DNA from: Muribaculaceae bacterium
GTDB lineage: Bacteria > Bacteroidota > Bacteroidia > Bacteroidales > Muribaculaceae
DNA length: 64,000 nucleotides
Direction of reading: 5' to 3'
Assembly (NCBI GenBank): GCA_045531405.1
Contig: JAZSDX010000053.1
Span: 13,582-77,581 of the forward strand
Shown here: positions 7,789 to 26,669 of the stretch, piece after piece
Layout: each line of letters begins with the position of its first letter
Position numbering within the stretch: position 1 is the first letter of the stretch
Translations under genes and position numbers: made by a program
Notes under the pieces: generated by a model
Database searches by the model: none
The model's input: the letters and a program-made list of their open reading frames with translations, nothing else
Told to the model about the DNA's origin: nothing

Positions 7789-7840
7789 TGTATAATGCAC
7801 AATGCATAATTCATAATTAGAAAATTTCAATTTACAATAT

Positions 7841-9556: not shown

Positions 9557-9569
9557 AACATTGTAAACA

Positions 9570-10118: not shown

Positions 10119-10124
10119 ATACAA

Positions 10125-10868
10125 ATGAGACCAAAGGAACATACTCATAAATATTTTCTCACTGCAGGCGAATGTAATGCACAACGCCAAATGCCCATCA
10201 CTCTCATCGCTCAACGAGTGATTGAAATTGCCACCGAACATGCCAATATACTCGGCGTGGGTTATAGCGATATGATTAAATTCAACTCGGGTTGGGTGTT
10301 GAGCCGCATGTCAATCGAAATGACTCGCTATCCGGGAGTGAACGAGGAATACAGTTTAATTACATGGATTGAAGGTTTTAATCGACTTTATTCTGAGCGT
10401 AATATGGAGATTCAAGATGGAAATGGCGAAACAATAGGATATGTGCGAACAATATGGGTTGCAATCGACATGGACACTCGTCGTCCATCAGACCTTTCAA
10501 ACATTTCTTGGCTTGCCGAAACAATCAACGATCGTCCTTGTCCTATTGCCAAGCAAAGCCGATTGATGCCGGTGAAAGATGAAGATGCCACAATTATGGT
10601 ACAACATCAATTTAGAGTTACCGACATTGATTTTAATCGCCACGTAAATAGCGTGAGGTATATGGATGCTTTGCTCAACCAATGGAATTTAGAGCATTTT
10701 GACAATAACGATATTGCTCGTTTTGAAATTCAATATCTCCACGAAACCCACTTTGGCGACAATGCTGTGGTTAAATCTAAAGTTGCCGATAATGTTGCCG
10801 AATCGGAGATTTCGGTTGGCGAAAACGCATCTTGTAGAGCAAAAATCTCTTTTATAAGCAAAATTTGA
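10125..10868 (+). CDS. Acyl-ACP thioesterase family protein
   Basis: 247 aa. Double hot-dog thioesterase pattern (FRVTDIDFNRHVNSVRYMD). Lies 6 nt after ilvN. Confidence 0.8.
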   Translation: MRPKEHTHKYFLTAGECNAQRQMPITLIAQRVIEIATEHANILGVGYSDMIKFNSGWVLSRMSIEMTRYPGVNEEYSLITWIEGFNRLYSERNMEIQDGNGETIGYVRTIWVAIDMDTRRPSDLSNISWLAETINDRPCPIAKQSRLMPVKDEDATIMVQHQFRVTDIDFNRHVNSVRYMDALLNQWNLEHFDNNDIARFEIQYLHETHFGDNAVVKSKVADNVAESEISVGENASCRAKISFISKI

Positions 10869-10894
10869 CACAAAAATTAAATATTTAATTGCAT

Positions 10895-10929
10895 TTTGTT
10901 GCTAAATTACAATTAAAGCAGTAAATTTG
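10895..10929 (+). promoter_or_regulatory. Candidate internal promoter before ilvC (-33 TTTG at 10895-10898, -7 TAAATTTG at 10922-10929)
   Basis: Consensus match with correct spacing, inside the 99-bp gap between the thioesterase gene and ilvC. Confidence 0.35.
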
Positions 10930-10967
10930 CAACAAAATCACAAAAAAACTAATATAACAATTCAATT

Positions 10968-12011
10968 ATGGCAAAAATGAATTTTGGCGGAGTTGAAGAA
11001 AACGTAATCCTCCGCGAAGAATTTCCCTTAGAAAAAGCTCGTGAAATCTTAAAAGACGAAACTATAGCTGTGATCGGTTATGGCGTTCAAGGTCCCGGTC
11101 AAAGTATGAACCTTCGTGACAATGGCTTTAACGTAATCGTTGGTCAACGTCAAGGTAAAACATTTGAAAAAGCAATCGCTGACGGTTGGGTTCCAGGTGA
11201 AACACTTTTCAGCATCGAAGAAGCATGCGAAAAAGGTACTATCATCATGTGTCTTCTTTCTGACGCTGCTGTAATGTCGGTATGGCCTACTCTTAAACAA
11301 TATCTCACACCAGGCAAAGCTCTCTACTTCTCTCACGGTTTTGCTCTCACATGGAGCGATCGCACAGGCGTAGTTCCTCCTGCTGATGTTGACGTTATTC
11401 TCGTTGCTCCTAAAGGCTCAGGTACATCATTGCGTACAATGTTCCTCGAAGGTCGCGGTTTGAACTCTTCATATGCAGTTTCTCAAGATGTTACAGGTCG
11501 TGCAACTGATCGTGCTCTTGCTCTCGGTATCGGTATCGGTTCAGGTTACCTCTTCGAAACCACTATCGAACGTGAAGCAACTTCTGACCTCACAGGTGAA
11601 CGTGGTTCATTGATGGGTGCAATCCAAGGTTTGTTGCTCGCTCAATATGAAGTGCTCCGTGAAAACGGTCACACTCCTTCTGAAGCATTCAACGAAACAG
11701 TAGAAGAATTGACACAATCATTGATGCCTCTCTTCGCTAAAAACGGTATGGACTGGATGTATGCAAACTGCTCTACCACTGCTCAACGTGGTGCTCTCGA
11801 CTGGATGGGTCCATTCCACGATGCAATCAAACCTGTTGTTCAACAACTTTATGATAGCGTAAAATCAGGTAACGAAGCTCAAATTTCAATCGACAGCAAC
11901 TCACAACCCGACTATCGCGAAAAACTCGAAGAAGAACTTAAAGCCCTTCGTGAAAGCGAAATGTGGCAAACAGCTGTTACAGTACGCAAACTTCGTCCTG
12001 AAAACAACTAA
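10968..12011 (+). CDS. ilvC: Ketol-acid reductoisomerase (class I)
   Basis: 347 aa. Motifs GYGVQGPGQSMNLRDNG, HGF, SDLTGERG. Confidence 0.96.
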   Translation: MAKMNFGGVEENVILREEFPLEKAREILKDETIAVIGYGVQGPGQSMNLRDNGFNVIVGQRQGKTFEKAIADGWVPGETLFSIEEACEKGTIIMCLLSDAAVMSVWPTLKQYLTPGKALYFSHGFALTWSDRTGVVPPADVDVILVAPKGSGTSLRTMFLEGRGLNSSYAVSQDVTGRATDRALALGIGIGSGYLFETTIEREATSDLTGERGSLMGAIQGLLLAQYEVLRENGHTPSEAFNETVEELTQSLMPLFAKNGMDWMYANCSTTAQRGALDWMGPFHDAIKPVVQQLYDSVKSGNEAQISIDSNSQPDYREKLEEELKALRESEMWQTAVTVRKLRPENN

Positions 12012-12099: not shown

Positions 12100-12132
12100 A
12101 TTTGGTTAATTAATATATAACCTATAACTTTG
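12100..12132 (+). promoter_or_regulatory. Candidate promoter of the B12 locus (-33 TTTG at 12100-12103, -7 TAACTTTG at 12125-12132)
   Basis: Consensus match. The predicted transcription start falls at the first nucleotides of the riboswitch P1 stem. Confidence 0.45.
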
Positions 12133-12135
12133 CCG

Positions 12136-12318
12136 ATGTAATGGTGTGGATACCCAACCGGGTTACTCTACTTAATAGGGAATCAGGTGTAAATCCTGGA
12201 CAGTCCCCGCTGCTGTGAGTTTCATTATCACTCACCGACATTCACAACCTGCCACTGAGGCGAAAGGCCTTGGGAAGGCGTCGGGATGAGGAAACGAGTC
12301 AGAAGACCTGCCACTACA
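12136..12318 (+). promoter_or_regulatory. Cobalamin (AdoCbl-type) riboswitch aptamer
   Basis: Conserved core AATAGGGAATCAGGTGTAAATCCTGGACAGTCCCCGCTGCTGT. B12 box CCTGCCACTG...GGGAAGGCG. P1 stem ATGTAATGG (12136-12144) pairs with CCACTACAT (12310-12318). Downstream, ATGTAGT (12364-12370) can compete for the P1 3' strand. A T-rich tract follows GTCTTC at about 12379-12390. Confidence 0.92.
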
Positions 12319-12499
12319 TTTATTTCAATAGCTTACGAGGTATGAGCTTTGAAAAGTTAAGACATGTAGTTAGCACTCGTCTTCTTTTTTCTTTGTTTCT
12401 GCCACCCTATACGAGATAGGAGTGCGTTTACATTTCAGGCTTGACAAGGTGTCGCCTCGAAGCTATTTTGATTAACAACTTAAATTATTAGTTATCAAA

Positions 12500-14509
12500 A
12501 TGGTAAGACGCATCTTAACAAGCTCGTTTTTTTATTTATTGCTGACTACACATTTCGCGTCAGCAACCACTCTCAGCGACGAGGGACACTCTACTCTTGA
12601 CACTACATTTCTCAAAGAGGTTGAAATCACAGCTCAATCCTACAAAGAAGTTATACCGGCACAAACATTAGGAGGAAAAGAATTAGAGGCATTGCGTTCA
12701 CACAGTGTAGCCGATGCTTTAAGGTATTTTTCGGGAGTACAATTAAAAGACTATGGTGGTGTGGGTGGTATTAAAACGGTCAATATCCGTTCGATGGGAA
12801 CAAACCACATGGGGGTTTATTATAATGGCATCGAATTGGGAAATGCTCAAAACGGACAAGTCGATTTAGGGAAATATTCATTGGAAAACATTGAAACCGT
12901 TTCACTCTATAACGGACAAAAAAGTGAAATTTTTCAGTCGGCACGCGAATTTGGTTCTGCCGGGTCAATATACCTCAACACCCGATTTCCTAAATTCAAA
13001 GAAGGAGAATCATGCCATTTGCGAGTGGGATTGCGAGCCGGCTCATTTGACCTCTTCAACCCATCTCTGACATTTGAGTACAAACTCAGCAAAACTATCA
13101 GCATGAGTTTCAATACCGAGTGGATAAGCTCATCGGGAAAATACAAATTCCGTTATCGACGCGTTACTCCTTCGGGCGAACTCGCCTACGACACAACTGC
13201 CATTCGCGAAAATGGCGATATTGATGCTGTTCGTCTTGAAGGTGGAGTGTATGGATTCCTTCCTAAAGGTCGATGGAAAGTTTATCTATACCATTACAAT
13301 TCAGAACGAGGAGTGCCTGGTGCCATTGTTAATAACGTGTGGCGACGTGGCGAAAGACTATGGGATCGAAACTCGTTTGCACAGGGAATGTTTGAACATC
13401 GATTCTCTTCAAAATTCAGCACAAAGGTAAACGCCAAATATGCCTTTGACTACACACGATATGTAAACAATGACGACAAACTCATTCATGTCGATAACAT
13501 CTACAAGCAAAGAGAGGTATATCTATCATGGGCAAACAAATATAGTGCGTTGCCTAATTGGGATTTGTCTATGGCATACGACTTTCAATGGAATGAATTA
13601 TCGGAATATATGGACGTTGACCGCTCAACTCATTGGGCATCATTGGCTACTGCCCTATCATTATGGGATTGCCTAAAGTTGCAAGCATCGGGTTTAATGA
13701 CATACGTAAATGAAGAACAACGAGAACGCAACTCAGCTCCCGACAAAGTTAAATTCACCCCAGGTGTATTTGCATCATATAAACCATTTAAAAAGCCTAA
13801 TTTAGTATTACGTGCTTTTTATAAACAAAGCTATCGCATGCCCACATTCAACGACTTGTATTACACCGATATGGGCAACGCATATCTCAAACCCGAAACA
13901 GCTATACAATATAATGTTGGCTTATTATATGATATAGTTCAAGAAAAAAGTTGGTTCAAATATTTTAAGGTTGGAACAGATGTTTACTATAATGATGTAA
14001 AAGATAAAATTGTAGCATATCCCAAAGGACAACAATTTCGATGGACAATGCTCAATCTCGGCAAAGTAGAAATCAAAGGTATCGATGCCCAATTAGGTGC
14101 GACATTCGGACTTCCATACGACATTGATTTCACTACCAAGGTCCAATACACCTACCAAGAAGCTATCGACGTAACAAATCCTGCCGATAATTACTATCGT
14201 CATCAGATTCCTTATATTCCATGGCATAGTGGTTCGGCTATTGTCATGCTCGATTGGAAAGGTTGGCATTTCAATTATAGCTTCATCTACACCGGCGAAA
14301 GATATAACCAACAAGAGAATATCCGCTATAACTACACTCAACCATGGTACACAAGCGACATTTCTCTGATGAAATCGTTTAAGATCAACAAGGTAAATCT
14401 AAAAGCCACAGCCGAGGTTAATAATCTTCTCTCACAAGATTATGATGTGATTCTTAACTACCCTATGCCCAAACGCAATTATCGATTTGGCATTGTCGTT
14501 GAACTTTAA
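12500..14509 (+). CDS. btuB: TonB-dependent receptor, vitamin B12 transporter BtuB-like
   Basis: 669 aa. Signal peptide. Plug motifs (ADALRYFSGVQLKDYGGVGGIKTVNIRSMG). Beta-barrel length. Directly controlled by the cobalamin riboswitch. Confidence 0.88.
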   Translation: MVRRILTSSFFYLLLTTHFASATTLSDEGHSTLDTTFLKEVEITAQSYKEVIPAQTLGGKELEALRSHSVADALRYFSGVQLKDYGGVGGIKTVNIRSMGTNHMGVYYNGIELGNAQNGQVDLGKYSLENIETVSLYNGQKSEIFQSAREFGSAGSIYLNTRFPKFKEGESCHLRVGLRAGSFDLFNPSLTFEYKLSKTISMSFNTEWISSSGKYKFRYRRVTPSGELAYDTTAIRENGDIDAVRLEGGVYGFLPKGRWKVYLYHYNSERGVPGAIVNNVWRRGERLWDRNSFAQGMFEHRFSSKFSTKVNAKYAFDYTRYVNNDDKLIHVDNIYKQREVYLSWANKYSALPNWDLSMAYDFQWNELSEYMDVDRSTHWASLATALSLWDCLKLQASGLMTYVNEEQRERNSAPDKVKFTPGVFASYKPFKKPNLVLRAFYKQSYRMPTFNDLYYTDMGNAYLKPETAIQYNVGLLYDIVQEKSWFKYFKVGTDVYYNDVKDKIVAYPKGQQFRWTMLNLGKVEIKGIDAQLGATFGLPYDIDFTTKVQYTYQEAIDVTNPADNYYRHQIPYIPWHSGSAIVMLDWKGWHFNYSFIYTGERYNQQENIRYNYTQPWYTSDISLMKSFKINKVNLKATAEVNNLLSQDYDVILNYPMPKRNYRFGIVVEL

Positions 14510-14520
14510 TTTTTCGATAT

Positions 14521-15678
14521 ATGAACAAACTTATTTTCTCTATACTCTTTTCATTAATGCTTTGTTGTGCCACAAGTTGTCGTGAAGACGAGATTGTGGT
14601 ACCAACAGAGTACGACATTTTGCCATTTGAGCCCAACTCCGACGTGAATCCAATAGGCTTGTACTTGCTCAACGAGGGCAATATGGGTAGCAACAAGGCC
14701 TCTATCGACTTTGTGGATTTCAAGAACGCCTATTATGTGCGCAATATGTATGCCGAGCGTAATCCCACTATTATCAAAGAACTGGGTGATGTGGGTAACG
14801 ATATTCAGATATATGGCAATAAGATATATGCCGTAATAAACTGTTCTCACAAGGTAGAAGTGATGGATGCGCATTCATTGGTGCGCATTGGGCAAATTGA
14901 CATCCCCAACTGCCGCTACATTAAATTTGACAAAGGGAATGCCTACGTTTCGGCTTATGTGGGACCGGTAGCTATTGACCCTGATGCACAACTTGGGGCT
15001 GTGTATCGAGTAGATACCGCCTCTCTTGCCATCACCGGGAAATGCACCGTTGGCTACCAACCCGACGAGTTAGAAATCCTCGGGGAATATATATATGTAG
15101 CAAATTCAGGTGGTTATAGAGTACCAAAATATGACTATACGATATCGGTTGTAGAGAAATTTGGCATGACCCAAGTTGAAAAAATACCGGTTGGTATAAA
15201 CCTTCATCGCACAGAAGCTGACAAATACGGAAAACTTTGGGTAACATCTCGTGGCAACTACGGCTCAATTCGTTCCAAAATGTTTGTACTTGAAAAAGAG
15301 AGCAAATTCTCACGAAAGATGGTTGTCACCGACACTCTCGACATTCCTTGTTCGGAGATGCACATTCAAGGGGATTCACTCTATTTCTACAGCGTAGAAT
15401 GGAGCAATCAAGAAGAAAAAAACCACATTGCCTACGGCATCATCGATGTGCGAACAAAAGAACTTGTTACCGACCATTTCATTACCGACGGCACTGAAAA
15501 GGACATTGAAATCCCTTACGGTATAAACGTACACCCTATTACCGGCGATATATATGTTACTGATGCCAAAAACTATGTTTCGAGTGGAGCTTTGCATTGT
15601 TACAGCCGTGAAGGTAAAAAGAAATGGAGTGTACGCACCGGCGACATTCCGGCACACATGGTATTCCTATATAAATAA
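14521..15678 (+). CDS. Surface lipoprotein, YncE-like beta-propeller (occupies the BtuG position)
   Basis: 385 aa. Lipoprotein signal (LMLCCATSC). Repeated-blade pattern (LYLLNEGNMGSN, YGNKIYAVIN, GEYIYVANSG, GDIYVTDAKNY). Lies 11 nt after btuB. Homology to BtuG itself was not verifiable by eye. Confidence 0.6.
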   Translation: MNKLIFSILFSLMLCCATSCREDEIVVPTEYDILPFEPNSDVNPIGLYLLNEGNMGSNKASIDFVDFKNAYYVRNMYAERNPTIIKELGDVGNDIQIYGNKIYAVINCSHKVEVMDAHSLVRIGQIDIPNCRYIKFDKGNAYVSAYVGPVAIDPDAQLGAVYRVDTASLAITGKCTVGYQPDELEILGEYIYVANSGGYRVPKYDYTISVVEKFGMTQVEKIPVGINLHRTEADKYGKLWVTSRGNYGSIRSKMFVLEKESKFSRKMVVTDTLDIPCSEMHIQGDSLYFYSVEWSNQEEKNHIAYGIIDVRTKELVTDHFITDGTEKDIEIPYGINVHPITGDIYVTDAKNYVSSGALHCYSREGKKKWSVRTGDIPAHMVFLYK

Positions 15679-15687
15679 TAACTCACA

Positions 15688-16917
15688 ATGAAATACTTAT
15701 ATCAAATATTAATCGCTACCATTTTATCAGCCACCATCTCAGCTTGCAAACCTGAGATTGAGATGGTTAGCCTTGGCATTGATGAAGAATATGCCATTGA
15801 ACGAATGAGAATACTGCACCTTCATCCCGAATTCCCCGGTGAGTCATACATTTGGTCGATGAAAGATGTAAATGGGAATGACTCTGTAATATCAAATGAA
15901 CGCGACTTGTATTTCGTAAAAAAAGATGCAGGCACATACAATGTAAAACTCAACATTGTTGATGACTCCGACCCGGTAGAGCATAACATAAAAATCGTGG
16001 TATGGAACGAGCAAGTTGCTTATAGTCGATACATCACCGAAGTGTATGAGTATCGTCCTGCACCAGGTCAATTTATCAACGAGTTACCCAAGTACAAAGA
16101 TGGGGATACAGAAGAATCAATGATAAAAAAGGTTTTGGAATGTATCTCGGATAAGAATGATGTCCTCATCTCACTCGGAGGATATGGTGGATATGTAACA
16201 TTTGGATTTGACCATGCTGTAGTGAACGTTCCAAACGAAATGGATTTTAAGATCTTAGGAAATTCTTTCTATGCCGAAGCAAATCCCAACCCCAATGCAC
16301 CGGAATCGGGTGGCAGTGCCGAGCCGGGCATCGTGATGGTATCTATCGACAAAAATGGCAATGGCAAACCCGATGATGAATGGTATGAACTTGCCGGAAG
16401 CGAATACTATAAACCTGAAACATTGCACAACTATTCAGTGACATATTTTCGCACCCCAAGCGACCACGTTGCAACACCCATTCCTCAGTCGCCAATTACC
16501 GACAACACATATATTCAATGGACTGCAAACGATGGCACAACAGGCTATATCGAAAAAAACTCATATCACCGTCAAGATTATTTCCCTAAATGGGTTACGG
16601 TCGATGAAATCACTTTTAGCGGAACACGATTGGCTTCAAATGGTATCGATGAGAGTGGCATAGCTAGCTATTTCGTGTTGTATGCCTATGATTGGGGATA
16701 TGCCGACAATCACCCCAATGAGGTTGGCGACAAAAGCTGCTTCAATATCGATTGGGCTGTAGATAAAAACGGCAACCATGTGCAGCTCGATGGTGTGGAT
16801 TTCATTCGTGTATTCACCGGTGTAAATCAATCATGTGGCTGGCTTGGCGAAACCTCTACTGAGATTTGTCGTGCCGAAGATTTGCATATTGACAACTCTT
16901 TTCTACCTAATCCCTAA
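15688..16917 (+). CDS. Lipoprotein: PKD/Ig-like domain plus a module of about 290 aa of unknown function (module X)
   Basis: 409 aa. Lipobox (TISAC). Ig-like segment (SYIWSMKDVNGND..GTYNVKLNIVDD). Module X starts at YRPAPGQF (16051) and is paralogous to 19494-20378 in the 1437-aa gene. Confidence 0.7.
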   Translation: MKYLYQILIATILSATISACKPEIEMVSLGIDEEYAIERMRILHLHPEFPGESYIWSMKDVNGNDSVISNERDLYFVKKDAGTYNVKLNIVDDSDPVEHNIKIVVWNEQVAYSRYITEVYEYRPAPGQFINELPKYKDGDTEESMIKKVLECISDKNDVLISLGGYGGYVTFGFDHAVVNVPNEMDFKILGNSFYAEANPNPNAPESGGSAEPGIVMVSIDKNGNGKPDDEWYELAGSEYYKPETLHNYSVTYFRTPSDHVATPIPQSPITDNTYIQWTANDGTTGYIEKNSYHRQDYFPKWVTVDEITFSGTRLASNGIDESGIASYFVLYAYDWGYADNHPNEVGDKSCFNIDWAVDKNGNHVQLDGVDFIRVFTGVNQSCGWLGETSTEICRAEDLHIDNSFLPNP

Positions 16918-16945
16918 CCGATTATAATAAATTAAACTACATAAT

Positions 16946-18778
16946 ATGAAAAAAATTTTATCACTAATTGCAAGTGCTTTGATTGTAGCAAGTTCTATGC
17001 AATCTATTGCACAAAATTACTACAATGGAGCGTATGTCCTCAACGAGGATTGGTATGGGCATAACAATAGTACTCTAAACTTCTGGAATCCGGAGGCAGA
17101 GACTATCGACTACCTCATTATGCAGATGGCCAACAACTATAAGTATTCTCTTGGCTGCACATCTCAGTATGGTCAACTTTATGGAGATTTTCTCGTAATT
17201 ACAGGCAAACAAGATAAAGACCCCGGTGAAGGTGGCGATATGCTATCGGGACGCGTTGCCATTTTGAATAAAAACACGCTCAAACCCATAGGTGATGAGG
17301 TACACCCTCTCATTTCGGTTAACGAGAATGGCAAATCCGATGCCGATGGCCGAGGTGTTTGTTTCGTTGACAATAACAAGTTTTATGTGGGCACATCAAA
17401 TGGCATATATGTATTTAAATGGAATGAACAAGGAAAAATCTTTGTGTGGGACTCAGAGAAGCCCATTCCAGGCACCGAGAACAAACTTATTACTGGCGAC
17501 GAAATAAGTAATGCCGATGGTCAAGGGCCTCTTTACCACAACCAAATAGGCATGATGCTTCGCACTCAAGATTATGTTTTCGCAATAAAACAAGACTTGG
17601 GGGTACTCGTCATCAACCCCCAAACCGATGAAATAATAAAGATTATTGAAGGTTGTTTCTCTACCATGGTTCAAAGCAAAGATGGGAATATATGGGTAGG
17701 TGTAAACTATCAAGAAGAGGGTAATGAAAGCAACCTTAACTATCCATACGGGTGGAATGGAAATGCTTGGAACGGCTCACAACTCATGTGTATCAACCAA
17801 TATAGCCTTGAAACAAAAAAGGTTCGTTTAGACACCGGTGGCGTGCCTCAATCGTGGTATGCGTGGACTGCAGGCTCTTTGACTGCGAGCAACACCGAAA
17901 ATACTCTATACTTTGTATATACCGACCCAAGCCTTGGACAAATCAACTGGTTTAGAAACTGCGTATTATATCGTTTCAATATTGATGCTATCGATTGGGA
18001 TAATATCGACCTCTCAAACCCCGACGAAGCGTATGCCGAAGGTGCTTGCGAAGAGATATATGATAGTTCTTTTGATGGATTGTATTTCTATGGCGGTGCT
18101 ATTCAATGCAATCCTAAAGATGGGAATATATATGCATCACTTTATGTGGGCGAAAACATTGCAACACAAGAATGGATCTACGCAATTATATCTCCCGAAG
18201 GGGAAATGATTCAATATCAAGAGCCTATTAAACGTTACTGGTATCCTGCAATGTTTATCTTCCCCGACAATAAAGCTCCTATTGTTGAGAAATTTGAAGA
18301 TGTAACTATCGATGATAAAGATCCTATTGAAGTCACTCTATCTGACAAAGTAACCGACGAAGATTCAAATAATGCCGCTATTATAAAAAGCATAAGCAAT
18401 ATCAAAGATGAATCAATCGTAAAAGCCGAAATTATTAATGGCAATTTAGTACTCACCCCATTGAAGAAAGGTAATACAGTGATTGAAATAGCCTTTAATT
18501 CCAATGGAAAAGTAGTAACTGAAAGTGTAAAAATATCAGTTACTGCCGACATCAGCTCTGTTCAATTAAACACCATTGAACAAGCAAACGTTTTTGCCGT
18601 TTCAGGAAATATTATGATTACCGGCATTGACACACCCCAACAAGTAGATGTTTTCAATGCTCAAGGCTCTCTTGTAAAATCGGTCATTATTAACAATGGC
18701 GACATGATTTCAGGACTGGTTAAAGGCAATCTCTATATCGTAAAAATTTCAAATCAATCACATAAAATTGTTATATAA
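16946..18778 (+). CDS. T9SS-secreted surface protein: propeller-like region, Ig-like domain and T9SS C-terminal sorting domain
   Basis: 610 aa. Signal peptide SIA|QN. YVLNEDWYGHNNSTLNF resembles the LNEGNMGSN motif of the upstream propeller. Ig-like segment (PIEVTLSDKVTDEDSNNA..). The C-terminal 75 aa (18551-18775) has the T9SS CTD pattern (VDVFNAQGSLVKSV..GLVKGNLYIVKISNQSHKIVI). Confidence 0.75.
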   Translation: MKKILSLIASALIVASSMQSIAQNYYNGAYVLNEDWYGHNNSTLNFWNPEAETIDYLIMQMANNYKYSLGCTSQYGQLYGDFLVITGKQDKDPGEGGDMLSGRVAILNKNTLKPIGDEVHPLISVNENGKSDADGRGVCFVDNNKFYVGTSNGIYVFKWNEQGKIFVWDSEKPIPGTENKLITGDEISNADGQGPLYHNQIGMMLRTQDYVFAIKQDLGVLVINPQTDEIIKIIEGCFSTMVQSKDGNIWVGVNYQEEGNESNLNYPYGWNGNAWNGSQLMCINQYSLETKKVRLDTGGVPQSWYAWTAGSLTASNTENTLYFVYTDPSLGQINWFRNCVLYRFNIDAIDWDNIDLSNPDEAYAEGACEEIYDSSFDGLYFYGGAIQCNPKDGNIYASLYVGENIATQEWIYAIISPEGEMIQYQEPIKRYWYPAMFIFPDNKAPIVEKFEDVTIDDKDPIEVTLSDKVTDEDSNNAAIIKSISNIKDESIVKAEIINGNLVLTPLKKGNTVIEIAFNSNGKVVTESVKISVTADISSVQLNTIEQANVFAVSGNIMITGIDTPQQVDVFNAQGSLVKSVIINNGDMISGLVKGNLYIVKISNQSHKIVI

Positions 18779-18779
18779 A

Positions 18780-21700
18780 ATGAAAAAGGTTAGTCTTATC
18801 ATGCTGTTTTTGTCGTTAGCAATGGCATTCACAGCTCAAGCCGGGACTCAATTTGTCCCCAAAGAGTATTCCTATGAGGCCGTTGGCTCAGATGGGAGTA
18901 GTTCTTTTTATGTTTATTTTTACGACCTATTTGAGTATCCCGACGACATTTCAACATCAACCGACATTTCACAAAAGGAGGGAATCACAATCACTACATC
19001 ATCGGGCGATAACACTATCATAAAATTAAACAGCATAGGCGCCCACATGAGCAAAACGAGAATGCAATTAACTCGTATGGGACAAGTAAAAGGTGAAACC
19101 ACATTCTCAGTATCGATTACTTATAATGGCGAAACCGTCACAAATAGCTTCCCTGTAAAAGTGCATGGGTTAGAAACATCAATGATTAAATCATATATCA
19201 ACCCCGATGAAATAGCTCCTCAAGTTTTTGATGTTATCGGCAACACAAGTTTCTATAAATCATCGGAAAAAACGACTTGTTCTTTAACTATCGACAACGC
19301 CGATGAATTAAAATATGGTACTATCGAATTAGTTGACGGAGAAAACGGATATAAGGTTATTCAATATACTCCTAACGGCACTCCTCAACAAATTGTATCA
19401 GATGCAATCAAATATACAATTACTTTATCTGACGGAACCGAATCCTCTTCAAATAAAATTATCACATATACTACTCGCAACTGCTATGCTACAAAAATAT
19501 TAGAATATCAACCTGCCGCAGGACAATTTCGTAGTGAAATTGCATGGGACAACCCTATCGAATTTTTTGAAAATAACGAACGTGGTGTGAGCCTTGGTGC
19601 ATTAGGTGGATATATCGTATTTGGTTTCGACCAACCTATCTACAACAATCCTCAAAATCCCTACGGCGTGGATTTCACTGTTGAAGGAAATTCATTTGTA
19701 GCTGCCGAAAAAGGAGTGTGGACCGAACCCGGAGCCGTGCAAGTTATGGAAGACAAAAACGGCAACGGGCTTCCCGATGACGGCGAATGGTATGAGCTTG
19801 CAGGTAGCGACTATTGGTTAAGCACCACCAAACATAATGTAGAACTAACATACTACAACCCTCACTATAATGATCGTTACACTGTGCCCTGGGCTATGAA
19901 ATGGGAGGAAAATGGCGAAATTAAGCATGAATATGGTGCAGTAGTAACAAACAACTTCCACAAGCACTCATTCTATCCCGATTATTTCTACAATCAAGAC
20001 AATCCCGATGAGTCTAAACGCTGGTTTTCTCCAAGTGTTTCCCGTGATTCAATCACATTTACCGGTGTCACCAACATTCGTGGTTGCATCGATATGCGTT
20101 CGCCAAGTTATATCGAGTTCTACGCTTATTCAGGATTTGGATATTGCGACAATAAGGGGTTTGTGAAAGAAGATTCGCGTATTGCTCAAAATCCTTATGG
20201 TCGTCCTTATCTTGGCGAAACAGCCGGAGATGGCATGGATATAAGTTGGGCAGTTGACAAAGATGGGAATTATGTAGAACTTGAAAAGATTGATTTCGTG
20301 AAAGTATATACCGCCGGGCAAGTTATTGCCGGTTGGCTTGGCGAATGGTCAACCGAAGTGTTAAACTGTGCCATTACTCTACCCGATCCCGAATATGTGC
20401 CACAAGATTATTACTACAATTATGTAGGTATAACTCAATTGCAAGTACCTAAAGGACACACATGCCAATATGAAGGATTTTTATTCAAGAATGGTCGTCC
20501 GGTAGAAAATGTGACACAACATTGGCGGATTACAATGGACAAAGAGGGTCTTGTAACCGATGGAGTTGATGCCATTGCCGAAATAGACAATACCGGTTTA
20601 CTCACTGCTAATGGCTATGGAACAGTGTGGGTACACTTCTCGGCTATGGACGGTATTCCTGAAGAAGCATTTGAAGTGTCGGTGTGCAATCTCTCAAGCG
20701 TAGTTATCAATCTTGAAGGGAACCAAGGCATTGAAAGTGAAGAATTAACATGTGTCGTTGGAGAACGTATTTACATCAACGTTGAAAGTGAAGATGACAA
20801 CACCCAAAATGTGAACGAGACAAAATCTAATCGCTTTATCTACGATAATTACACTTGGTTAAACAGCAATCCCGATGTAGGGACAATAGATAATGGGAAC
20901 TTTATCGCATTGAAACCTGGAACTACCACTCTCACTGCTGTGTCGGGAATTAACCCATCATTAAACGACAAAATTGCAATAACAGTTATTGATATTCCCG
21001 AAATTACAATAACTCCTATACAAATTGCATCAACTAGCCACTCTGGAGAATTACTCAACAGCGACATCTTCTCAACAGGCACTGGAGCTACTGTATATAT
21101 GGACAAAGTAACTGCAAAGAAAGGATTGGCAAATATTTCACTTTACAACAACCGCCTTTCATATCAATTTACCGAAGGTGAATATGTTACTGACATTCTC
21201 ATCTTTAAGGTGATTTGTTATGGTCAAGAAAAAACTATCGAAGTTCCTATCACTTATGGTCCTTACAACTTGGCTTCTCGCAAAAAAGTGTTGATGATTA
21301 ATAGCACTGATGAAAATGGCGTTGACTTAGGCATTGCCCAACTTCAAGGCATCGATGCAGAAACATTTGAGAACAAGACCTACGTTGAAGATCTTGCTTG
21401 CGGCTCTAATCTGAATCAAATCCCAACCGACAATATTCTTCCTGATGGTTCATACGCATACCTTACACAAGGCACAAACCTTTCTCGTTATGATGTGGAA
21501 TGGGGAAAAACTGTTGTAAGTGCAACATTAACCTCTACCGATAAGCATCAACTTGCTACTTACAAAGACAAAATTATTGTTAGCGACGGAGATTCTCTCA
21601 AAGCATTCTATCGCACCGACCTCGAAGCATTCAAATCAATCAAGCTAAATGGCACAATCAAACAAATGGTGATAAATGGAGATGTTGCCTATATTTTATG

Positions 21701-23093
21701 TGCAACTGACGCCAACGCCCGAATAAACAAGCTCAATCTTGCCACATGGACTTTGGCTGAAACCAATATAGATATCGACGGAGGAAATAAAGCCTCAGGA
21801 ATGTATTACCTTAACGACAAACTCTATATTGCTACCGGTGAAGTAAACGGAGAAGCAGCCTCAATGGTTGTGTTTAACCCAACTGACAACTCTAATACTA
21901 CAACATCGGCTACCATCGACGGAAGTATGCAAATTCCTCATGGTGTTTCGGTTCAAGCAGGCAATAACATTATGGTATCACGTGGTTGTGGATTTATCGC
22001 ATATAATCTTGAAACCGAAACATTCGCTGATGAAACCGTGATGATTCTCAACGACATATTTATCCCAACACTTGCCGTTTACGAACCCACCGACTCATCT
22101 GAATACTATTACGTGGCATATTCTCAAGGCATGGCTATGTTTGAATCATCTGATTTAACACAACCAAAGATGATTTTCAATGCAATTCCATCGGCAATAA
22201 GTATAATGGCTGCAACCGAACAAAATGAGGCTCCTACTACCAAGAAAGCTTATTCATACACATCGGGAGTATATGAACGTGCCACTTCGGTAAAAAAATG
22301 TACCGCAGCAAAACTAACTACACTCTTTGCCGACAACGAAGGCAACACTACCGACAACCTCACTATGTATATTCGTGAAGATGTAGATTGGTTAGATGTA
22401 ACATATTCATCAGGCAACATCACTCCTAATGTTAAATACACCGGCGATGTTGACAATTTAACCGACATTGTGTTCCCGGTTGAATGTATCGACAAGAATG
22501 GGGCATCAACAATGAGTACTGCCACAATCCGCATCACTCCTCGCATCTACAAACCAACGATTGACGAATCACAAGTAATAATCTATACCGATTCGGTACT
22601 CGTTGACACGCTTTCGGTTGGTAACATTTTCACTTACCCTAAATCAACAACTAACCTAACATTTGTAACTAATGTTTCAAACGTTAGCGACTACACTCTT
22701 ATCAACAGTGCTGAAATCGACCAAAACAATAATTTGGTTATTACTGCTATGGAAGGTGTAAAAGGGGAAGCTGCTGTTGAATTAACTCAAACCATTACTC
22801 ACAAAACTTATGGTTCAAAAACATTCACTGCGACAATTCCTGTTGCATTTGAAAGCAAAGTGCCATCGGGAATTGATTGTATATCTAACAACAATATAGA
22901 TATAAATTACGTCAATGGAGTATTGACTATTAACAACTGTAAAGGAGAAAGATGCTTAATTTATAATGTTGCCGGATCGCTTATTTATTCATGCGATATT
23001 AATAGTAACAACTTCTCTATTCTATTAAATCTCAACAATGACATATATATTGTAACGACTGACAATCAACGCATAAAAATTGCAGTGAAATAA
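18780..23093 (+). CDS. Giant T9SS-secreted multidomain surface protein (Ig-like, module X, Big_2-like repeats, propeller-like region, Ig-like, T9SS CTD)
   Basis: About 1437 aa from the ATG at 18780 (the ORF track begins at a TTG at 18768). Signal peptide MKKVSLIMLFLSLAMAFTAQA. Module X spans 19494-20378 (YQPAAGQF..GWLGEWSTEV). Big_2-like motifs (TANGYGTVWVHFSA, ALKPGTTTLTAVSG). Propeller-like repeats (YKDKIIVSDGDS, GDVAYILCA, NDKLYIATGE). CTD at 22866-23090 (CLIYNVAGSLIYS..NDIYIVTTDNQRIKIAVK). Confidence 0.8.
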   Translation: MKKVSLIMLFLSLAMAFTAQAGTQFVPKEYSYEAVGSDGSSSFYVYFYDLFEYPDDISTSTDISQKEGITITTSSGDNTIIKLNSIGAHMSKTRMQLTRMGQVKGETTFSVSITYNGETVTNSFPVKVHGLETSMIKSYINPDEIAPQVFDVIGNTSFYKSSEKTTCSLTIDNADELKYGTIELVDGENGYKVIQYTPNGTPQQIVSDAIKYTITLSDGTESSSNKIITYTTRNCYATKILEYQPAAGQFRSEIAWDNPIEFFENNERGVSLGALGGYIVFGFDQPIYNNPQNPYGVDFTVEGNSFVAAEKGVWTEPGAVQVMEDKNGNGLPDDGEWYELAGSDYWLSTTKHNVELTYYNPHYNDRYTVPWAMKWEENGEIKHEYGAVVTNNFHKHSFYPDYFYNQDNPDESKRWFSPSVSRDSITFTGVTNIRGCIDMRSPSYIEFYAYSGFGYCDNKGFVKEDSRIAQNPYGRPYLGETAGDGMDISWAVDKDGNYVELEKIDFVKVYTAGQVIAGWLGEWSTEVLNCAITLPDPEYVPQDYYYNYVGITQLQVPKGHTCQYEGFLFKNGRPVENVTQHWRITMDKEGLVTDGVDAIAEIDNTGLLTANGYGTVWVHFSAMDGIPEEAFEVSVCNLSSVVINLEGNQGIESEELTCVVGERIYINVESEDDNTQNVNETKSNRFIYDNYTWLNSNPDVGTIDNGNFIALKPGTTTLTAVSGINPSLNDKIAITVIDIPEITITPIQIASTSHSGELLNSDIFSTGTGATVYMDKVTAKKGLANISLYNNRLSYQFTEGEYVTDILIFKVICYGQEKTIEVPITYGPYNLASRKKVLMINSTDENGVDLGIAQLQGIDAETFENKTYVEDLACGSNLNQIPTDNILPDGSYAYLTQGTNLSRYDVEWGKTVVSATLTSTDKHQLATYKDKIIVSDGDSLKAFYRTDLEAFKSIKLNGTIKQMVINGDVAYILCATDANARINKLNLATWTLAETNIDIDGGNKASGMYYLNDKLYIATGEVNGEAASMVVFNPTDNSNTTTSATIDGSMQIPHGVSVQAGNNIMVSRGCGFIAYNLETETFADETVMILNDIFIPTLAVYEPTDSSEYYYVAYSQGMAMFESSDLTQPKMIFNAIPSAISIMAATEQNEAPTTKKAYSYTSGVYERATSVKKCTAAKLTTLFADNEGNTTDNLTMYIREDVDWLDVTYSSGNITPNVKYTGDVDNLTDIVFPVECIDKNGASTMSTATIRITPRIYKPTIDESQVIIYTDSVLVDTLSVGNIFTYPKSTTNLTFVTNVSNVSDYTLINSAEIDQNNNLVITAMEGVKGEAAVELTQTITHKTYGSKTFTATIPVAFESKVPSGIDCISNNNIDINYVNGVLTINNCKGERCLIYNVAGSLIYSCDINSNNFSILLNLNNDIYIVTTDNQRIKIAVK

Positions 23094-23121: not shown

Positions 23122-23153
23122 CAAAAATGGGCTGTGCAAAGACAGCCCATTTT
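23122..23153. terminator. Bidirectional intrinsic terminator between convergent operons
   Basis: Hairpin ATGGGCTGT-gcaaag-ACAGCCCAT (23127-23150), flanked by an A5 run upstream and a T-run downstream. Confidence 0.75.
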
Positions 23154-23172: not shown

Positions 23173-25788
23173 TTATTTAATAAACTTGATTGTTTTTACA
23201 TTTCCACCTGTTGTAACTTTGGCGATATATACACCATTGCTCAAATCAGCAACAGAAATAATTGCCATTGAAGATGATGGGGTTGCATTCAATACTATCG
23301 CACCTGAAGCATTGTAAATTTCAACTGATTCGATTGTATTAGCTGCACTAATATTTAATACTTCGCCATTACATGAAGTCTTGATTTCTGCTACTTCTTC
23401 AATTGCTTCAACACCTACGGCTGGAAGTTCGATGTCGGTAACTTTTGCAGTTTGAGTTGCATTATCCCATTGGCTAAACTCAAGATTATTGAAGTTTACT
23501 GCTCCATTCCATGCTTGATATGGAGTTTCTTCGTCGTCAATATCGGTCCATTCATGACGCATAAAGAAGCTATCAAAACGCCATGTTGAGATTGTTGTTG
23601 CTTCTCCTGTGAAATGTGTAAATGGCTCGTTCTTAATATCCCATTTAACAAGATTCCAACCACGGAAATCAATAGTTGTTTGAGGATCTTGATACTTAAG
23701 TTCTGAATTATTGATACGCAACATTGCCGAAACTGCATTATTTGAGCCATCGCCATATAACCAGAATGTCAAAATGCCATCTGATATGTTACGGTTAGCA
23801 TTAACTCCTGATTGAGTTGGAGTATATTCTCGGATTTGCCAAAGTTCATTTGCAAAATATTCATCAAATGAATAAGTCATTAATGCAGAACCAGCAGTAT
23901 TTTTGTTAGGAGCAAGAGTGCTTGATGTGGTTGAGTTGCCTTCGTCGGTAAGACCTGAAGTAGAACCTGAGCCATTTGGAGCCCAGAAACCATCAGCACT
24001 TGTTAATGGGAATAATACTGTTGAAGATGTTTTAGTGCGATATTCTGAAAGGAAACGGAAATGGAATTCTTCAGTTTCATTGCCTGAAACGTCGGGTAAT
24101 CCGGCTTTTACTGACACTAAGAAACACTTGTCGGCAGGAATAGTATCATTTGTGTAGAAATGAAGAACAGATTTTCCAAATACTACAGCATGTGTAGCTG
24201 TTCCTTCATAAGTTTTTCCATCGCTATCTTTTACAGTGATGAAATCAGAATGTTTATCGGCATTCCACACAATTTCTTCATCATATTCGATGCGGATAGG
24301 AGGCATAATTGCAAATTCTGCTGTTTGGTCAGCAGCAGGATAAGTTGTCACAATTTGTGGAGCAGTAACATCAGGTTCTGCAATAGTGATAGAAAGCACA
24401 TAGTTACCACCTTCGACACCGTCACCATCACCATCAAAGAATTGGTTGGTTTGTGAATTCTTTGCAATAGAACCATCAATAGTGATATCATAAGTCCACA
24501 TTGGATCAAGTTTTGTGATATCAATATTCAAGGTATAATCGTTTACCCATTCAAAGGCAATCTCACCACCATTGTTGATTGTAATAGCCTTTTCAACTGA
24601 TTCTCTATCCATATTACGAGAGAATGTAATTGTAACAGGATAAATAGGGGAAACATTTGTTGGGTCAACAACCGATGTTGCATCAACTTTAGCAGGAGAA
24701 GTACTTGTTAATTCTACGTGTTGAACTGTAACATAATCATTTGTTGCACCTTGTGCACCATCTTTAATAGTCACTTGAACTGTTTTAGATTCAAATCCGT
24801 CAAGTTCAAATGTCACATCATAGGTTTTTCCTACTTCTAATCCTTCAAAGAAATAGAATCCGTTGTGAATCAAGTTTTCATTTTTGGTATAAATGTTAAA
24901 TACTGATTCCCAAGTATCGGTTGTATAAGTTTTACCATCAACAGTAACTTTTACACCATTAATAGGTGTGTTATTTTCAGAATTGCTTATAATACCGGCG
25001 AGGAATGTTTGAGAAGGAACATTCAAACCACGATATTTAAGGATTGATTGAAAACCTGCAAGAGCCTCAAGACGTTTATATTCTTTGTTGATGTTGAGTT
25101 GTTGTTGTGCAGCAATAGTATGATATGCACCTTCACTCAACAAAGAAGCCATATTTGAACGGCGGTTTACCGATAAATAAGGATATTGATATGCATGAGT
25201 AGTTTCTCCACGAAGATAGAAACAACGGTCATACCAGTTGCCACGAGTTCCGGTACAAGCAAAGTTCATCATCATGTCTGTGAGGTTAGGACAAAGTATG
25301 TCACCAAATGCTTTACCCCCATTAGGAGTTTTTTCTACTTCTACACCATCTTTCATCCAACCACCAAATAGAGTAACAGTTGTGTTGTTTTCTGCAGACG
25401 CGTCAGAGTGTATTGAGTAATAGAAATCGGCGCCCCAAGCATTTGCCATATCAGAGCGTTCTTCGAGTCCAACCTCTGTAACTTCATCTTCACGGCAAAG
25501 CATGAGATTATCTGCCGGCATATCGGTATATGTAAGCAAATATTCTTTCATTGTTTGTGCAATTGCAAATACTTTTTCAGCTTCAGAATATCCCCAAAGT
25601 CCTCTATTTTCCTTCATAGAGTGACCGGGATCAAGGAATAATTTAAAATCACCCCAGCCTGTTATTTCTTTTTCGACAATCGAATCAGTTGCTATAGTAT
25701 CTGTATTTTCTTGAGCAAAAGAAGGCATTGTCATTAAACACATTGCAGATATTACTGCACTTTTCTTAAATATATTCATCTTTTTCAT
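23173..25788 (-). CDS. T9SS-secreted N-acetylmuramoyl-L-alanine amidase (Amidase_3) family multidomain protein
   Basis: 871 aa. Signal peptide SFA|QE. Amidase_3 pattern (LFLDPGHS..SEAEKV..LEERSDMANAWGADFYYSIHSDA). CarbopepD_reg-like segment (GIISNSENNTPINGVKVTVDGKTY). Ig-like (SbsA/Big_5-type) repeats. T9SS CTD (VEIYNASGAIVLN..LSNGVYIAKVTTGGNVKTIKFIK). Confidence 0.75.
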   Translation of the reverse strand: MKKMNIFKKSAVISAMCLMTMPSFAQENTDTIATDSIVEKEITGWGDFKLFLDPGHSMKENRGLWGYSEAEKVFAIAQTMKEYLLTYTDMPADNLMLCREDEVTEVGLEERSDMANAWGADFYYSIHSDASAENNTTVTLFGGWMKDGVEVEKTPNGGKAFGDILCPNLTDMMMNFACTGTRGNWYDRCFYLRGETTHAYQYPYLSVNRRSNMASLLSEGAYHTIAAQQQLNINKEYKRLEALAGFQSILKYRGLNVPSQTFLAGIISNSENNTPINGVKVTVDGKTYTTDTWESVFNIYTKNENLIHNGFYFFEGLEVGKTYDVTFELDGFESKTVQVTIKDGAQGATNDYVTVQHVELTSTSPAKVDATSVVDPTNVSPIYPVTITFSRNMDRESVEKAITINNGGEIAFEWVNDYTLNIDITKLDPMWTYDITIDGSIAKNSQTNQFFDGDGDGVEGGNYVLSITIAEPDVTAPQIVTTYPAADQTAEFAIMPPIRIEYDEEIVWNADKHSDFITVKDSDGKTYEGTATHAVVFGKSVLHFYTNDTIPADKCFLVSVKAGLPDVSGNETEEFHFRFLSEYRTKTSSTVLFPLTSADGFWAPNGSGSTSGLTDEGNSTTSSTLAPNKNTAGSALMTYSFDEYFANELWQIREYTPTQSGVNANRNISDGILTFWLYGDGSNNAVSAMLRINNSELKYQDPQTTIDFRGWNLVKWDIKNEPFTHFTGEATTISTWRFDSFFMRHEWTDIDDEETPYQAWNGAVNFNNLEFSQWDNATQTAKVTDIELPAVGVEAIEEVAEIKTSCNGEVLNISAANTIESVEIYNASGAIVLNATPSSSMAIISVADLSNGVYIAKVTTGGNVKTIKFIK

Positions 25789-25796: not shown

Positions 25797-26669
25797 TTAG
25801 TATTTGAGATTAATAACATAAATTGATGCATCTATTGCATTTTCAAATGCAACTTTCTTGCCATCAGGTGATACCGAAGGTGTCAATGGAATTAAATCGG
25901 TGTTGCCTGTAAGAAGATATTTCACACCATTGTTAATATTAATTGAATATATATCTGACGATGTAAAATTAGAGCCATCATCGGTTACTAATGTAAAAAT
26001 TAGCGACTGATTATCAGCTAACCATTGAGGATTAGACCCTTTACCTATGCTTTTGAGATTTCCTCCATTATTATCGCAAATCCACATTCCATGTCCCGGA
26101 ATTTGGAACGCAACTTTTGTTCCATCGGGCGACAATGCCGGATTTATAATCATTTTTCCTGAAAACTCTTTCAACGAAACAATTTTTGATGTAGCTTTTG
26201 CCGGTTCTGCAACCATCAACTCATATACTCCGTCTGCTTCAAGTGTAGCAGTTGCTTTGATAGATTTCCATGTTGGAGTACCATTAATGTTTCTGCTTTT
26301 CCCTACTATGATATCAGCCTTACCGGTTGCGATGTCCCATTTCTTAACTTCATGGAGAACGCAATTATTTTCAATAACATTGGTACGGCCCAATATTTGC
26401 GTACCATCGGCACTCCATTTCATCTTGTAACCGGCGCCCGATTCAGATGTAATAGATTTTAAATTACTACCATCGGCATTTGCGACCAAAATACCGGTGT
26501 AATTGTCGGTTGTTACAGCGATTTGAGACCCATCGGGAGACCACACAGGAGCCATCAAACCTACTGAATACTCAATGAGCTTTTGAGGCTCACTTGCCGA
26601 GCGAGGTTGTGCGAAAACGCATGCACAGCCTAAGCAGAGTGAAATTGCTAAAACAAAATTTCGTTTCAT
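25797..26669 (-). CDS. Secreted TolB-like (PD40 repeat) beta-propeller protein
   Basis: 290 aa. Signal peptide VFA|QP. Repeated SPDG motifs (WSPDGSQIAV, SADGTQILG, SPDGTKVAFQ, SPDGKKVAFE). Lies 8 nt upstream of the amidase gene. Confidence 0.75.
   Translation of the reverse strand: MKRNFVLAISLCLGCACVFAQPRSASEPQKLIEYSVGLMAPVWSPDGSQIAVTTDNYTGILVANADGSNLKSITSESGAGYKMKWSADGTQILGRTNVIENNCVLHEVKKWDIATGKADIIVGKSRNINGTPTWKSIKATATLEADGVYELMVAEPAKATSKIVSLKEFSGKMIINPALSPDGTKVAFQIPGHGMWICDNNGGNLKSIGKGSNPQWLADNQSLIFTLVTDDGSNFTSSDIYSININNGVKYLLTGNTDLIPLTPSVSPDGKKVAFENAIDASIYVINLKY

Follow-up and report, generated by a model that had tools for sequence, protein, structure and literature searches.

Positions 15688-23093 of the 64,000-nucleotide stretch analyzed here (the window; contig JAZSDX010000053.1 of a Muribaculaceae bacterium) are the distal half of a vitamin B12 uptake operon that is controlled by a cobalamin riboswitch. 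The region holds three plus-strand open reading frames encoding proteins of 409, 610, and 1437 amino acids (aa). The operon as a whole runs from the riboswitch through btuB, btuG (385 aa), btuH (409 aa), and a DUF5074/BtuK1-like gene (610 aa) to a giant gene (1437 aa; Table 1). The best overall explanation, to which we give a probability of roughly 0.65, is that this riboswitch-controlled B12 operon includes a giant, BtuH-bearing capture protein that is exported by the type IX secretion system (T9SS) and whose beta-propeller is degenerate.

The starting point was an earlier note on this DNA, which described a module of about 290 aa (module X) common to the 409-aa lipoprotein and the giant protein. 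BLASTP of one against the other (15688-16917 vs 18780-23093) returned a single collinear alignment of residues 77-407 of the 409-aa protein with residues 205-541 of the giant (E = 3e-42, 122/374 identities, 33%), which rules out chance similarity. The peptide blocks quoted for the module were all found in the translations, and the limits proposed for it, nt 16039-16890 and 19494-20378 (residues 118-401 and 239-533), agree with the domain limits that we found. Homology identifies module X in both proteins as the known vitamin B12-binding BtuH domain (PDB 7BIZ, 8BLW). The best PDB match of the 409-aa protein was the H-domain of 8BLW_B (E = 2.3e-84), with BtuH2 (7BIZ) at E = 2.4e-49; the corresponding values for module X of the giant were 3.2e-31 and 1.4e-25. 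A Foldseek search with the predicted structure of giant residues 1-560 placed 7BIZ, which shares the layout of two immunoglobulin-like (Ig-like) domains and then an H-domain, at the top (E = 7.6e-23) and 8BLW_B next. Pfam and NCBIfam scans of module X gave zero matches, neither library having a fitting model for the BtuH domain. DUF4465 was also considered for the module but corresponds to the BtuJ family, which is unrelated, and the Pfam scan found no DUF4465 match in the operon proteins. The suggestion of module X as a ligand binder linked to B12 loci thus stands: it matches a dedicated B12 binder rather than a generic domain common outside B12 loci, and both H-domain genes lie in the riboswitch-controlled btuB operon.

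BtuH2 is a Bacteroides thetaiotaomicron surface lipoprotein that binds B12 through this domain and is required for gut fitness, with reported affinities from low pM (surface plasmon resonance) to ~ 23 nM (stopped-flow) (PMC8941943; PMC13616437). Its corrin contacts are Q333, F334, F401, Y475, H476, Y510, and W577, and its two-metal phosphate site consists of N399, E406, D522, S582, and E584 (PMC13616437). We mapped these residues with an offset of 100 for the 7BIZ chain. In the 409-aa protein all 12 are identical (Q128, F129, N192, F194, E212, Y293, H294, Y328, D340, W385, S390, and E392), and in the giant 11 of 12 are (Q249, F250, N304, F306, E316, F393, H394, Y444, D457, W519, S524, and E526), the exception being Y475, which is replaced by F393. 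All 12 contact columns were invariant or at least 90% conserved in a 45-sequence alignment of the giant family plus the 409-aa protein. This conservation rules out a vestigial H-domain, and the BtuH domain is apparently functional in both copies. The 409-aa protein, with an ISAC lipobox (Cys20), is an ordinary BtuH lipoprotein. The giant lacks the lipobox of the BtuH family: its signal peptide ends AQA-G, without a cysteine. On sequence evidence, its BtuH domain is a second, paralogous copy in which the B12 and metal site is intact. Giant H-domains are 42-59% identical between distant species but only 33-38% identical to the separate BtuH, and therefore form a paralogue lineage of their own.

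We predicted the structure of the giant with AlphaFold2 in two models, residues 1-560 and 541-1437, each on 45-sequence alignments (mean predicted local distance difference test, pLDDT, 84.1 and 88.8, respectively). In the second model, three Ig-like domains are followed by ~ 27 strands that fit seven four-stranded blades, then by two Ig-like domains, a linker, and a seven-strand beta-sandwich. The proposed layout downstream of module X, a propeller followed by an Ig-like region and a T9SS C-terminal domain (CTD), is therefore borne out by the prediction. So is the resemblance of the end of the giant to that of the 610-aa protein. When the C-terminal 897 residues of the giant were compared with the 610-aa protein by BLASTP, the match was limited to the last ~ 150 residues (Ig plus CTD, E = 1e-4), and a CTD profile built from the last 95 residues of the giant family matched the 610-aa tail with a probability of 94.7% (hhalign, E = 5.8e-8). 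NCBI labels the giant orthologues only as "T9SS type A sorting domain-containing protein".

The kinship of the giant propeller turned out differently from what had been proposed, namely that its repeats resemble those of both the 385-aa and the 610-aa proteins. BLASTP of the C-terminal 897 residues against these two proteins detected no propeller similarity. In profile-profile comparisons (hhalign) on alignments taken from related loci, the giant propeller matched the 385-aa BtuG family over 266 collinear columns (90%, E = 1.5e-6), whereas its match to the 610-aa family was out of register (9%, E = 4e-3); in a control, the BtuG and 610-aa families matched each other (98%, E = 4.6e-13). The resemblance thus holds for the 385-aa protein at the profile level and fails for the 610-aa protein, and the structure prediction bears out a propeller fold in the mid-region of the giant but links it to BtuG instead of the 610-aa protein. 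The best compact Foldseek matches of the propeller were BtuG2 entries and a BtuG-type homologue: 8BAI (template modelling score, TM, 0.70; 4.5 A), 3DSM (0.69), 8BMY (0.67), and 8PTF (0.66). Only compact matches with root-mean-square deviations (rmsd) of 4.5-6 A were considered here; the whole-chain ranking was dominated by multi-Ig and multi-propeller chains with rmsd values of 30-110 A and is meaningless. A phmmer search with the propeller against 1.84 billion representative sequences found it in 17 clusters, all within the giant family, and hence gave no independent link to BtuG; in the full-length proteins (1170-2200 residues), it is well removed from the chain ends.

We then compared the ligand-contacting positions. 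BtuG2 contacts B12 through E55, Q93, N107, S131, Y196, and Q219 (PMC13616437). Their equivalents in the BtuG of the window (E52, N93, N107, N130, Y199, and N227) were invariant in 44-45 of 45 orthologues from related loci, whereas in the giant-propeller family they were absent, gapped, or variable at the aligned positions (D 18/35, S 15/35, N 17/35; D884, S919, and K1004 in the window giant), as read from a low-identity alignment. The NEG motif is absent from blade 1 of the giant propeller. Median identity to the window, computed in 14 distant genomes, was 74% for BtuB, 75% for BtuG, 68% for the BtuH domain of the 409-aa protein, 53% for the giant H-domain, 46% for the 610-aa propeller, and 27% for the giant propeller, the fastest-evolving part of the operon. 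We conclude, with the caveat of the low-identity alignment, that the giant propeller is a degenerate BtuG derivative with no conserved BtuG-type pocket. It could instead be a second functional corrinoid site, as in BtuG1/BtuGH, with two B12 molecules bound or one transferred within the chain. The top compact structural matches, which are B12-bound BtuG structures, and the profile match to the BtuG family would suit such a dual binder, and BT1490, both domains of which bind cyanocobalamin (PMC13616437), provides a precedent. We nevertheless consider it unlikely in view of the contacts that are invariant in BtuG and not in the giant, the missing NEG motif, the median identity of the propeller relative to that of BtuG in the same genomes, and the existence of family variants without a propeller.

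The earlier note went on to treat the giant as a Rosetta-stone fusion: since its chain unites parts that are otherwise split over two adjacent genes, the 409-aa lipoprotein would physically dock on the T9SS-anchored 610-aa propeller, and module X would be the functional core of the locus. The composite architecture, with module X, propeller, Ig-like domains, and CTD in one chain, is real by both BLASTP and AlphaFold2, and the related ends of the giant and 610-aa proteins could be taken in the same sense. We surveyed related loci using one genome per species, which yielded 56 species-level loci. The five-gene set was present in 39 of these, 37 of them with the gene order of the window and hence with the 409-aa and 610-aa genes as neighbors. 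However, profiling of split and fused forms beside the riboswitches revealed co-occurrence and not substitution: the fused gene and separate btuG, btuH, and DUF5074 genes share one operon in the 39 loci. Because the two forms co-occur and do not replace each other, classical Rosetta-stone logic is inapplicable, and the fusion is no stand-in for the split pair. Furthermore, the giant propeller is of the BtuG type and not of the DUF5074 type of the 610-aa protein (90% vs 9%), so the fusion does not imply that the 409-aa protein docks on the 610-aa propeller; nor, with three Ig-like domains between the H-domain and propeller of the giant, does it imply direct contact. The parts that the fusion brings together are an H-domain and a BtuG-like propeller, and it lends no specific support to docking between the 409-aa and 610-aa proteins. 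The idea of module X as the core of the locus also conflicts with the published distribution, in which btuG is the only accessory gene universal across gut Bacteroidetes B12 transport loci, beside btuBFCD, and btuH is an accessory gene of patchy occurrence (PMC8941943). Functional coupling of BtuH and BtuG has already been deduced from the BT1490 (BtuG1/BtuGH) fusion (PMC10404256; PMC13616437). Taken as a whole, the Rosetta-stone account appears very improbable.

The 56 loci are mostly from Muribaculaceae, and the best match is 81% identical to the window. Other carriers are Coprobacter secundus, Bacteroides nordii, Paraprevotella clara, Tannerella, Breznakibacter, Paludibacteraceae, and Candidatus Aphodosoma; the cluster of the P. 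clara orthologue comprises 1602 member sequences. Linkage to the riboswitch is widespread. A cobalamin riboswitch upstream on the same strand was confirmed with Rfam in six of six diverse related loci. We also built an nhmmer profile from eight Rfam-confirmed aptamers, whose further matches we call riboswitch-like as they are without Rfam validation; such a match was found upstream in 43 of the 46 loci with at least 6 kb of upstream sequence. Four surveyed loci (identified by L numbers) have a second riboswitch directly 5′ of the giant gene: L037 (8506-8737; Rfam-confirmed, 96.7 bits) and, as nhmmer matches only, L010 (7703-7966), L056 (4620-4864), and L058 (8358-8601). A giant-type gene with its own riboswitch can therefore be a separate B12-regulated transcription unit.

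The giant family also varies in length. Shorter members of ~ 880-1160 aa, and one of 1375 aa, occur in L029, L034, L039-L043, L048-L054, and L059; they have the H-domain, Big_2 domains, and, where checked, a CTD, and a propeller was not detectable. Members of ~ 1200-1250 aa that begin directly with the H-domain and are without the N-terminal Ig pair occur in L025, L033, L036-L038, L041, L056, and L058.

The two other accessory proteins were characterized in the same way. The 385-aa protein matched 8PTF and 8BLW_B (BtuG1 G-domain) at E ~ 2e-36, with weaker matches (E ~ 1e-10) to further propeller entries of the BtuG type, BtuG2 among them. It has the lipobox (Cys20, followed by REDE) and the position downstream of btuB expected of a BtuG-family lipoprotein, neither of which applies to the giant, whose gene is fifth in the operon and which is without a lipobox. 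Pfam DUF5074 (PF16819) gave a strong match to the 610-aa protein (291.1 bits vs a cut-off of 27.2, E = 1.5e-86), which also matched BtuK1 (PDB 9S6C, E = 1.7e-7), mainly over 65 residues covering the first strand and loop. Its NEDWYGH sequence (residues 33-39) aligns with NEGWFGH of BtuK1, which bears Glu23, Trp25, and His28; among the other BtuK1 contacts, Thr60 and Lys76 are kept and Glu77 is replaced by Gln. The NEDWYGH motif was present in 17 of 17 orthologues inspected. The 610-aa protein starts with a plain signal peptide (SIA-Q) and ends with an Ig-like domain and a CTD.

The export signals divide the operon products into two pairs. BtuG and BtuH have lipobox cysteines, whereas a plain signal peptide is combined with a CTD in the 610-aa and giant proteins, and this pattern was kept in the 18 loci inspected. 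The giant-family CTD profile matched, in addition to the 610-aa tail, the tail of an amidase encoded next to the operon (23173-25788, minus strand; 95.5%, E = 1.5e-8), which itself scores above the Pfam Por_Secre_tail cut-off. Giant orthologues have precomputed PF18962 matches. On these signals, the 610-aa and giant proteins are probably T9SS cargo. In Bacteroides nordii (L027, 6685-12700), both CTD-bearing genes are present and are named "T9SS type A sorting domain-containing protein" and "DUF5074 domain-containing protein" by NCBI.

Near-identical strains showed a mosaic along the giant (window 20412-23090 compared with L004 and L005). In L004, identity was 100% for the N-terminal Ig-like domains (X_N), 99% for the H-domain, 90% for the propeller, 82% for the Big_2 block, 68% for the distal Ig-like domains, and 78% for the CTD, while the neighboring 610-aa protein was ~ 100% identical to that of the window (propeller and CTD 100%, Ig 99%). 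In L005, the Big_2 block of the giant was 97% and the N-terminus 75% identical to the window. This pattern points to recombination within the gene or to diversifying selection acting on its distal half. It could also be expected if the giant were mainly a surface adhesin or S-layer-like protein whose propeller and distal Ig-like domains recognize variable targets (cells, host B12 carriers, or mucus), with B12 being secondary; seven Ig-like domains and a T9SS CTD are found in many Bacteroidota adhesins, and the propeller and C-terminal Ig-like domains evolve fast. However, the H-domain is the most conserved part of the giant and retains its ligand contacts apart from one Tyr-to-Phe exchange, and cobalamin riboswitches control nearly all the loci, sometimes with one dedicated to the giant gene. 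We regard an adhesin as highly unlikely.

Several observations weigh against a T9SS-exported capture protein with a degenerate propeller. The relationship of the propeller to BtuG stands on a predicted structure (TM 0.66-0.70) and the 90% profile match, and the mapping of the lost ligand site hangs on a low-identity alignment. Because some lineages are without the propeller, it is not essential to the family. The CTDs of the 610-aa and giant proteins of the window fall below the curated Pfam and NCBIfam cut-offs (610-aa protein, TIGR04183, E = 0.019; giant, DUF6383, E = 0.0045, and the type C model, E = 0.014). Finally, orthologues are present in Bacteroides nordii, and the best-studied Bacteroides species are generally said to lack a T9SS.

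Each building block has a characterized relative. BtuH2 (BT1956 of B. thetaiotaomicron, 7BIZ; Putnam et al, 2022, PMC8941943) resembles the window proteins in its N-terminal Ig/PKD part followed by a globular B12-binding domain, in the ligand and metal contacts conserved in both H-domain proteins, and in belonging to a btuB operon under riboswitch control. BtuH2 is a lipoprotein whose chain stops at the H-domain, which fits the 409-aa protein; the giant differs in having no lipobox and 900 more residues past the H-domain (Ig, propeller, Ig, and T9SS CTD). BtuG1/BtuGH (BT1490, 8BLW_B; Abellon-Ruiz et al, 2023, PMC10404256), to which both window H-domains are closest in sequence among PDB entries, is like the giant in combining a BtuG-type seven-bladed propeller and a BtuH domain in one chain. 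In BT1490, the propeller is N-terminal (residues 38-362 of 8BLW_B), the H-domain is C-terminal (roughly 390-663) and docked directly onto it, both domains bind B12, and the protein is a lipoprotein lid on BtuB. By contrast, the giant has the reversed order, three intervening Ig-like domains, lost BtuG contacts, and a T9SS CTD as its probable export signal, and the window encodes a separate canonical BtuG beside BtuB. Section 5.1 of PMC13616437 puts the BtuH domain of BT1490 N-terminal of the propeller, whereas our alignment to 8BLW_B and PMC10404256 put it C-terminal.

BtuK1 (BT1486, 9S6C; Juodeikis et al, 2025, PMC12751083; reviewed in PMC13616437) shares with the 610-aa protein the E-x-W-x-x-H strand and loop, Thr60, Lys76, and a propeller body. 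The overall similarity is weak (E = 1.7e-7), and BtuK1 and BtuK2 are lipoproteins with an N-terminal PKD domain, whereas in the 610-aa protein the signal peptide is plain and the Ig-like domain and T9SS CTD follow the propeller. A precedent for combining an extracellular B12-binding domain with a T9SS CTD exists in the BtuJ/DUF4465 family (IPR027828), in which 229 of 824 members have a T9SS sorting domain (PMC12751083), although its fold, a beta-jelly-roll, is different. The BtuH domain, the idea of a G-H fusion, and T9SS-tagged B12 binders of the BtuJ family are therefore already published. The putatively T9SS-exported giant with its reversed domain order and a BtuK1-like propeller in T9SS form appear to be undescribed: a literature search for BtuH together with T9SS found no paper, one on DUF5074 found only unrelated work, and the 2022 survey of btuH homologues was confined to N-terminal domains (PMC8941943).

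Homologies, residue conservation, predicted folds, operon conservation, and riboswitch linkage are results of the analysis; the export route, surface tethering, B12 binding by these particular proteins, the hand-over steps, and the part played by the propeller are inferred. A working model for T9SS-assisted capture would be as follows. When B12 is scarce, the riboswitch would permit transcription of the entire operon. BtuB and BtuG would form a capped transporter, with BtuH as a surface lipoprotein, while the 610-aa and giant proteins would exit through the T9SS and be tethered to the surface or to vesicles, or be released. Held among seven Ig-like domains, the H-domain of the giant could bind corrinoids some way out from the membrane, as would probably the 610-aa protein with its BtuK1-like loop. 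The ligand might then be relayed down an affinity series to the BtuH lipoprotein and the BtuG lid and on through BtuB; a relay ending in BtuG-BtuB has been proposed for the B. thetaiotaomicron lipoproteins (PMC13616437). The giant propeller would most likely be a docking or scaffold module and not a second BtuG-type B12 pocket.

The arrangement of the genes is that of a compact operon (Table 1). Intergenic gaps are 1-28 nt: btuG starts 11 nt downstream of btuB, and the ATG of the giant gene, taken as position 18780 (the start that orthologues also use), lies 1 nt past the stop codon of the 610-aa gene. A consensus scan found a terminator-like hairpin after the giant gene and no other plus-strand terminator-like site within 12500-23093.

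Table 1. Coordinates of the B12 uptake operon and of the domains of the giant protein in the window.
Feature	Coordinates	Strand	Evidence or remarks
Cobalamin riboswitch aptamer, operon head	12125..12329	+	Rfam RF00174, 110.6 bits, E = 7.6e-27
BtuB-type TonB-dependent outer-membrane transporter, 669 aa	12500..14509	+	Pfam Plug, E = 7.4e-15; TonB_dep_Rec_b-barrel, E = 4.7e-33; first gene past the riboswitch
BtuG, surface lipoprotein, seven-bladed propeller, BtuB lid, 385 aa	14521..15678	+	BtuG-type matches in PDB
BtuH lipoprotein, 409 aa: PKD/Ig domain (nt ~15748-16017) and B12-binding H-domain, module X (nt ~16021-16896)	15688..16917	+	PDB matches
610-aa protein: DUF5074 propeller (BtuK1-like B12 loop), Ig, and T9SS-type CTD; ordinary signal peptide	16946..18778	+	Pfam; PDB 9S6C
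Giant putative T9SS cargo protein, 1437 aa, whole gene	18780..23093	+	Orthologues of 1360-1450 aa, down to ~27% identity
Giant: signal peptide (residues 1-22) and two N-terminal Ig-like domains (residues ~25-232)	18852..19475 (Ig)	+	AlphaFold2
Giant: BtuH-type B12-binding domain, module X (residues 236-535)	19485..20384	+	BLASTP, PDB, Foldseek, contact conservation
Giant: three Ig-like (Big_2-type) domains (residues ~545-826)	20412..21257	+	AlphaFold2, pLDDT mostly >85; weak Pfam Big_2 match at 687-729
Giant: divergent BtuG-like seven-bladed beta-propeller (residues ~836-1145)	21285..22214	+	AlphaFold2, ~27 strands, pLDDT ~90; Foldseek; hhalign
Giant: two Ig-like domains (residues ~1158-1358)	22251..22853	+	AlphaFold2; BLASTP to 610-aa Ig plus CTD, E = 1e-4
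Giant: T9SS-type C-terminal sorting domain (residues ~1374-1437)	22899..23090	+	Seven-strand beta-sandwich in model; profile match
Terminator-like hairpin closing the operon, between convergent genes	23124..23153	+	12-bp stem, 5 GC pairs, then TTTT (consensus scan)

The surroundings of the operon are as follows. The product of the convergent neighbor (23173-25788, minus strand) is 871 aa long, combines Amidase_3, Big_5, and Por_Secre_tail domains, and is a T9SS cargo above the Pfam cut-off; its gene adjoins one for a 290-aa PD40 (WD40-like) repeat protein (25797-26669, minus strand). The riboswitch is immediately preceded by a cluster for branched-chain amino-acid biosynthesis (5959-12011, plus strand), the synteny of which is preserved in the closest relatives. 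The ilvD gene was recognized by a Pfam scan of the window, and the large and small acetolactate synthase subunits, an acyl-ACP thioesterase, and ketol-acid reductoisomerase by the Pfam labels of the syntenic genes in L001. A 552-aa protein with DUF4435 and AAA_21 domains (33518-35176, plus strand), of a kind present in some abortive-infection or OLD-like defense genes, is found near the operon in L001 as well. Farther away are an outer-membrane biogenesis cluster (39745-49561, minus strand) that encodes LptD_2 (902 aa), an Omp85/POTRA protein (765 aa), and a TamB-like protein (1563 aa), and, at the left edge (153-5066, minus strand), a pair of SusD-like (548 aa) and SusC-like (1081 aa) proteins.

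B12 capture decides the competitive fitness of gut Bacteroidota, and the current model of it comes almost wholly from the lipoproteins of B. thetaiotaomicron. The locus overturns no current view; in widespread and abundant gut Bacteroidales, such as the Muribaculaceae of the mouse gut and Paraprevotella clara of the human gut, two extra members of the operon would be T9SS cargo and not lipoproteins, one of them re-using both known B12-binding folds in a chain of 1400 residues. The public labels read only "T9SS type A sorting domain-containing protein" or "DUF5074 domain-containing protein"; the link to B12 can be transferred to hundreds of sequences. A bolder extension, which we hold to be speculative and on balance improbable, is a T9SS branch of corrinoid scavenging in non-model gut Bacteroidales (Muribaculaceae, Paraprevotella, Coprobacter, Tannerella, and some Bacteroides). 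Here the giant, long and tethered to the surface or to vesicles, would serve as a "fishing line" with the BtuH domain as its hook for B12, its ligand-blind, BtuG-derived propeller would dock on BtuB-BtuG for direct hand-over, perhaps competing for the lid position, and the BtuK1-like 610-aa protein, likewise exported by the T9SS, would be a second capture module. If so, the propeller would exemplify how a lid domain for ligand binding is put to new use in docking. The operon provides a testable case of how far from the cell a corrinoid relay may reach and of whether a BtuG-type propeller may be re-purposed after loss of its ligand site.

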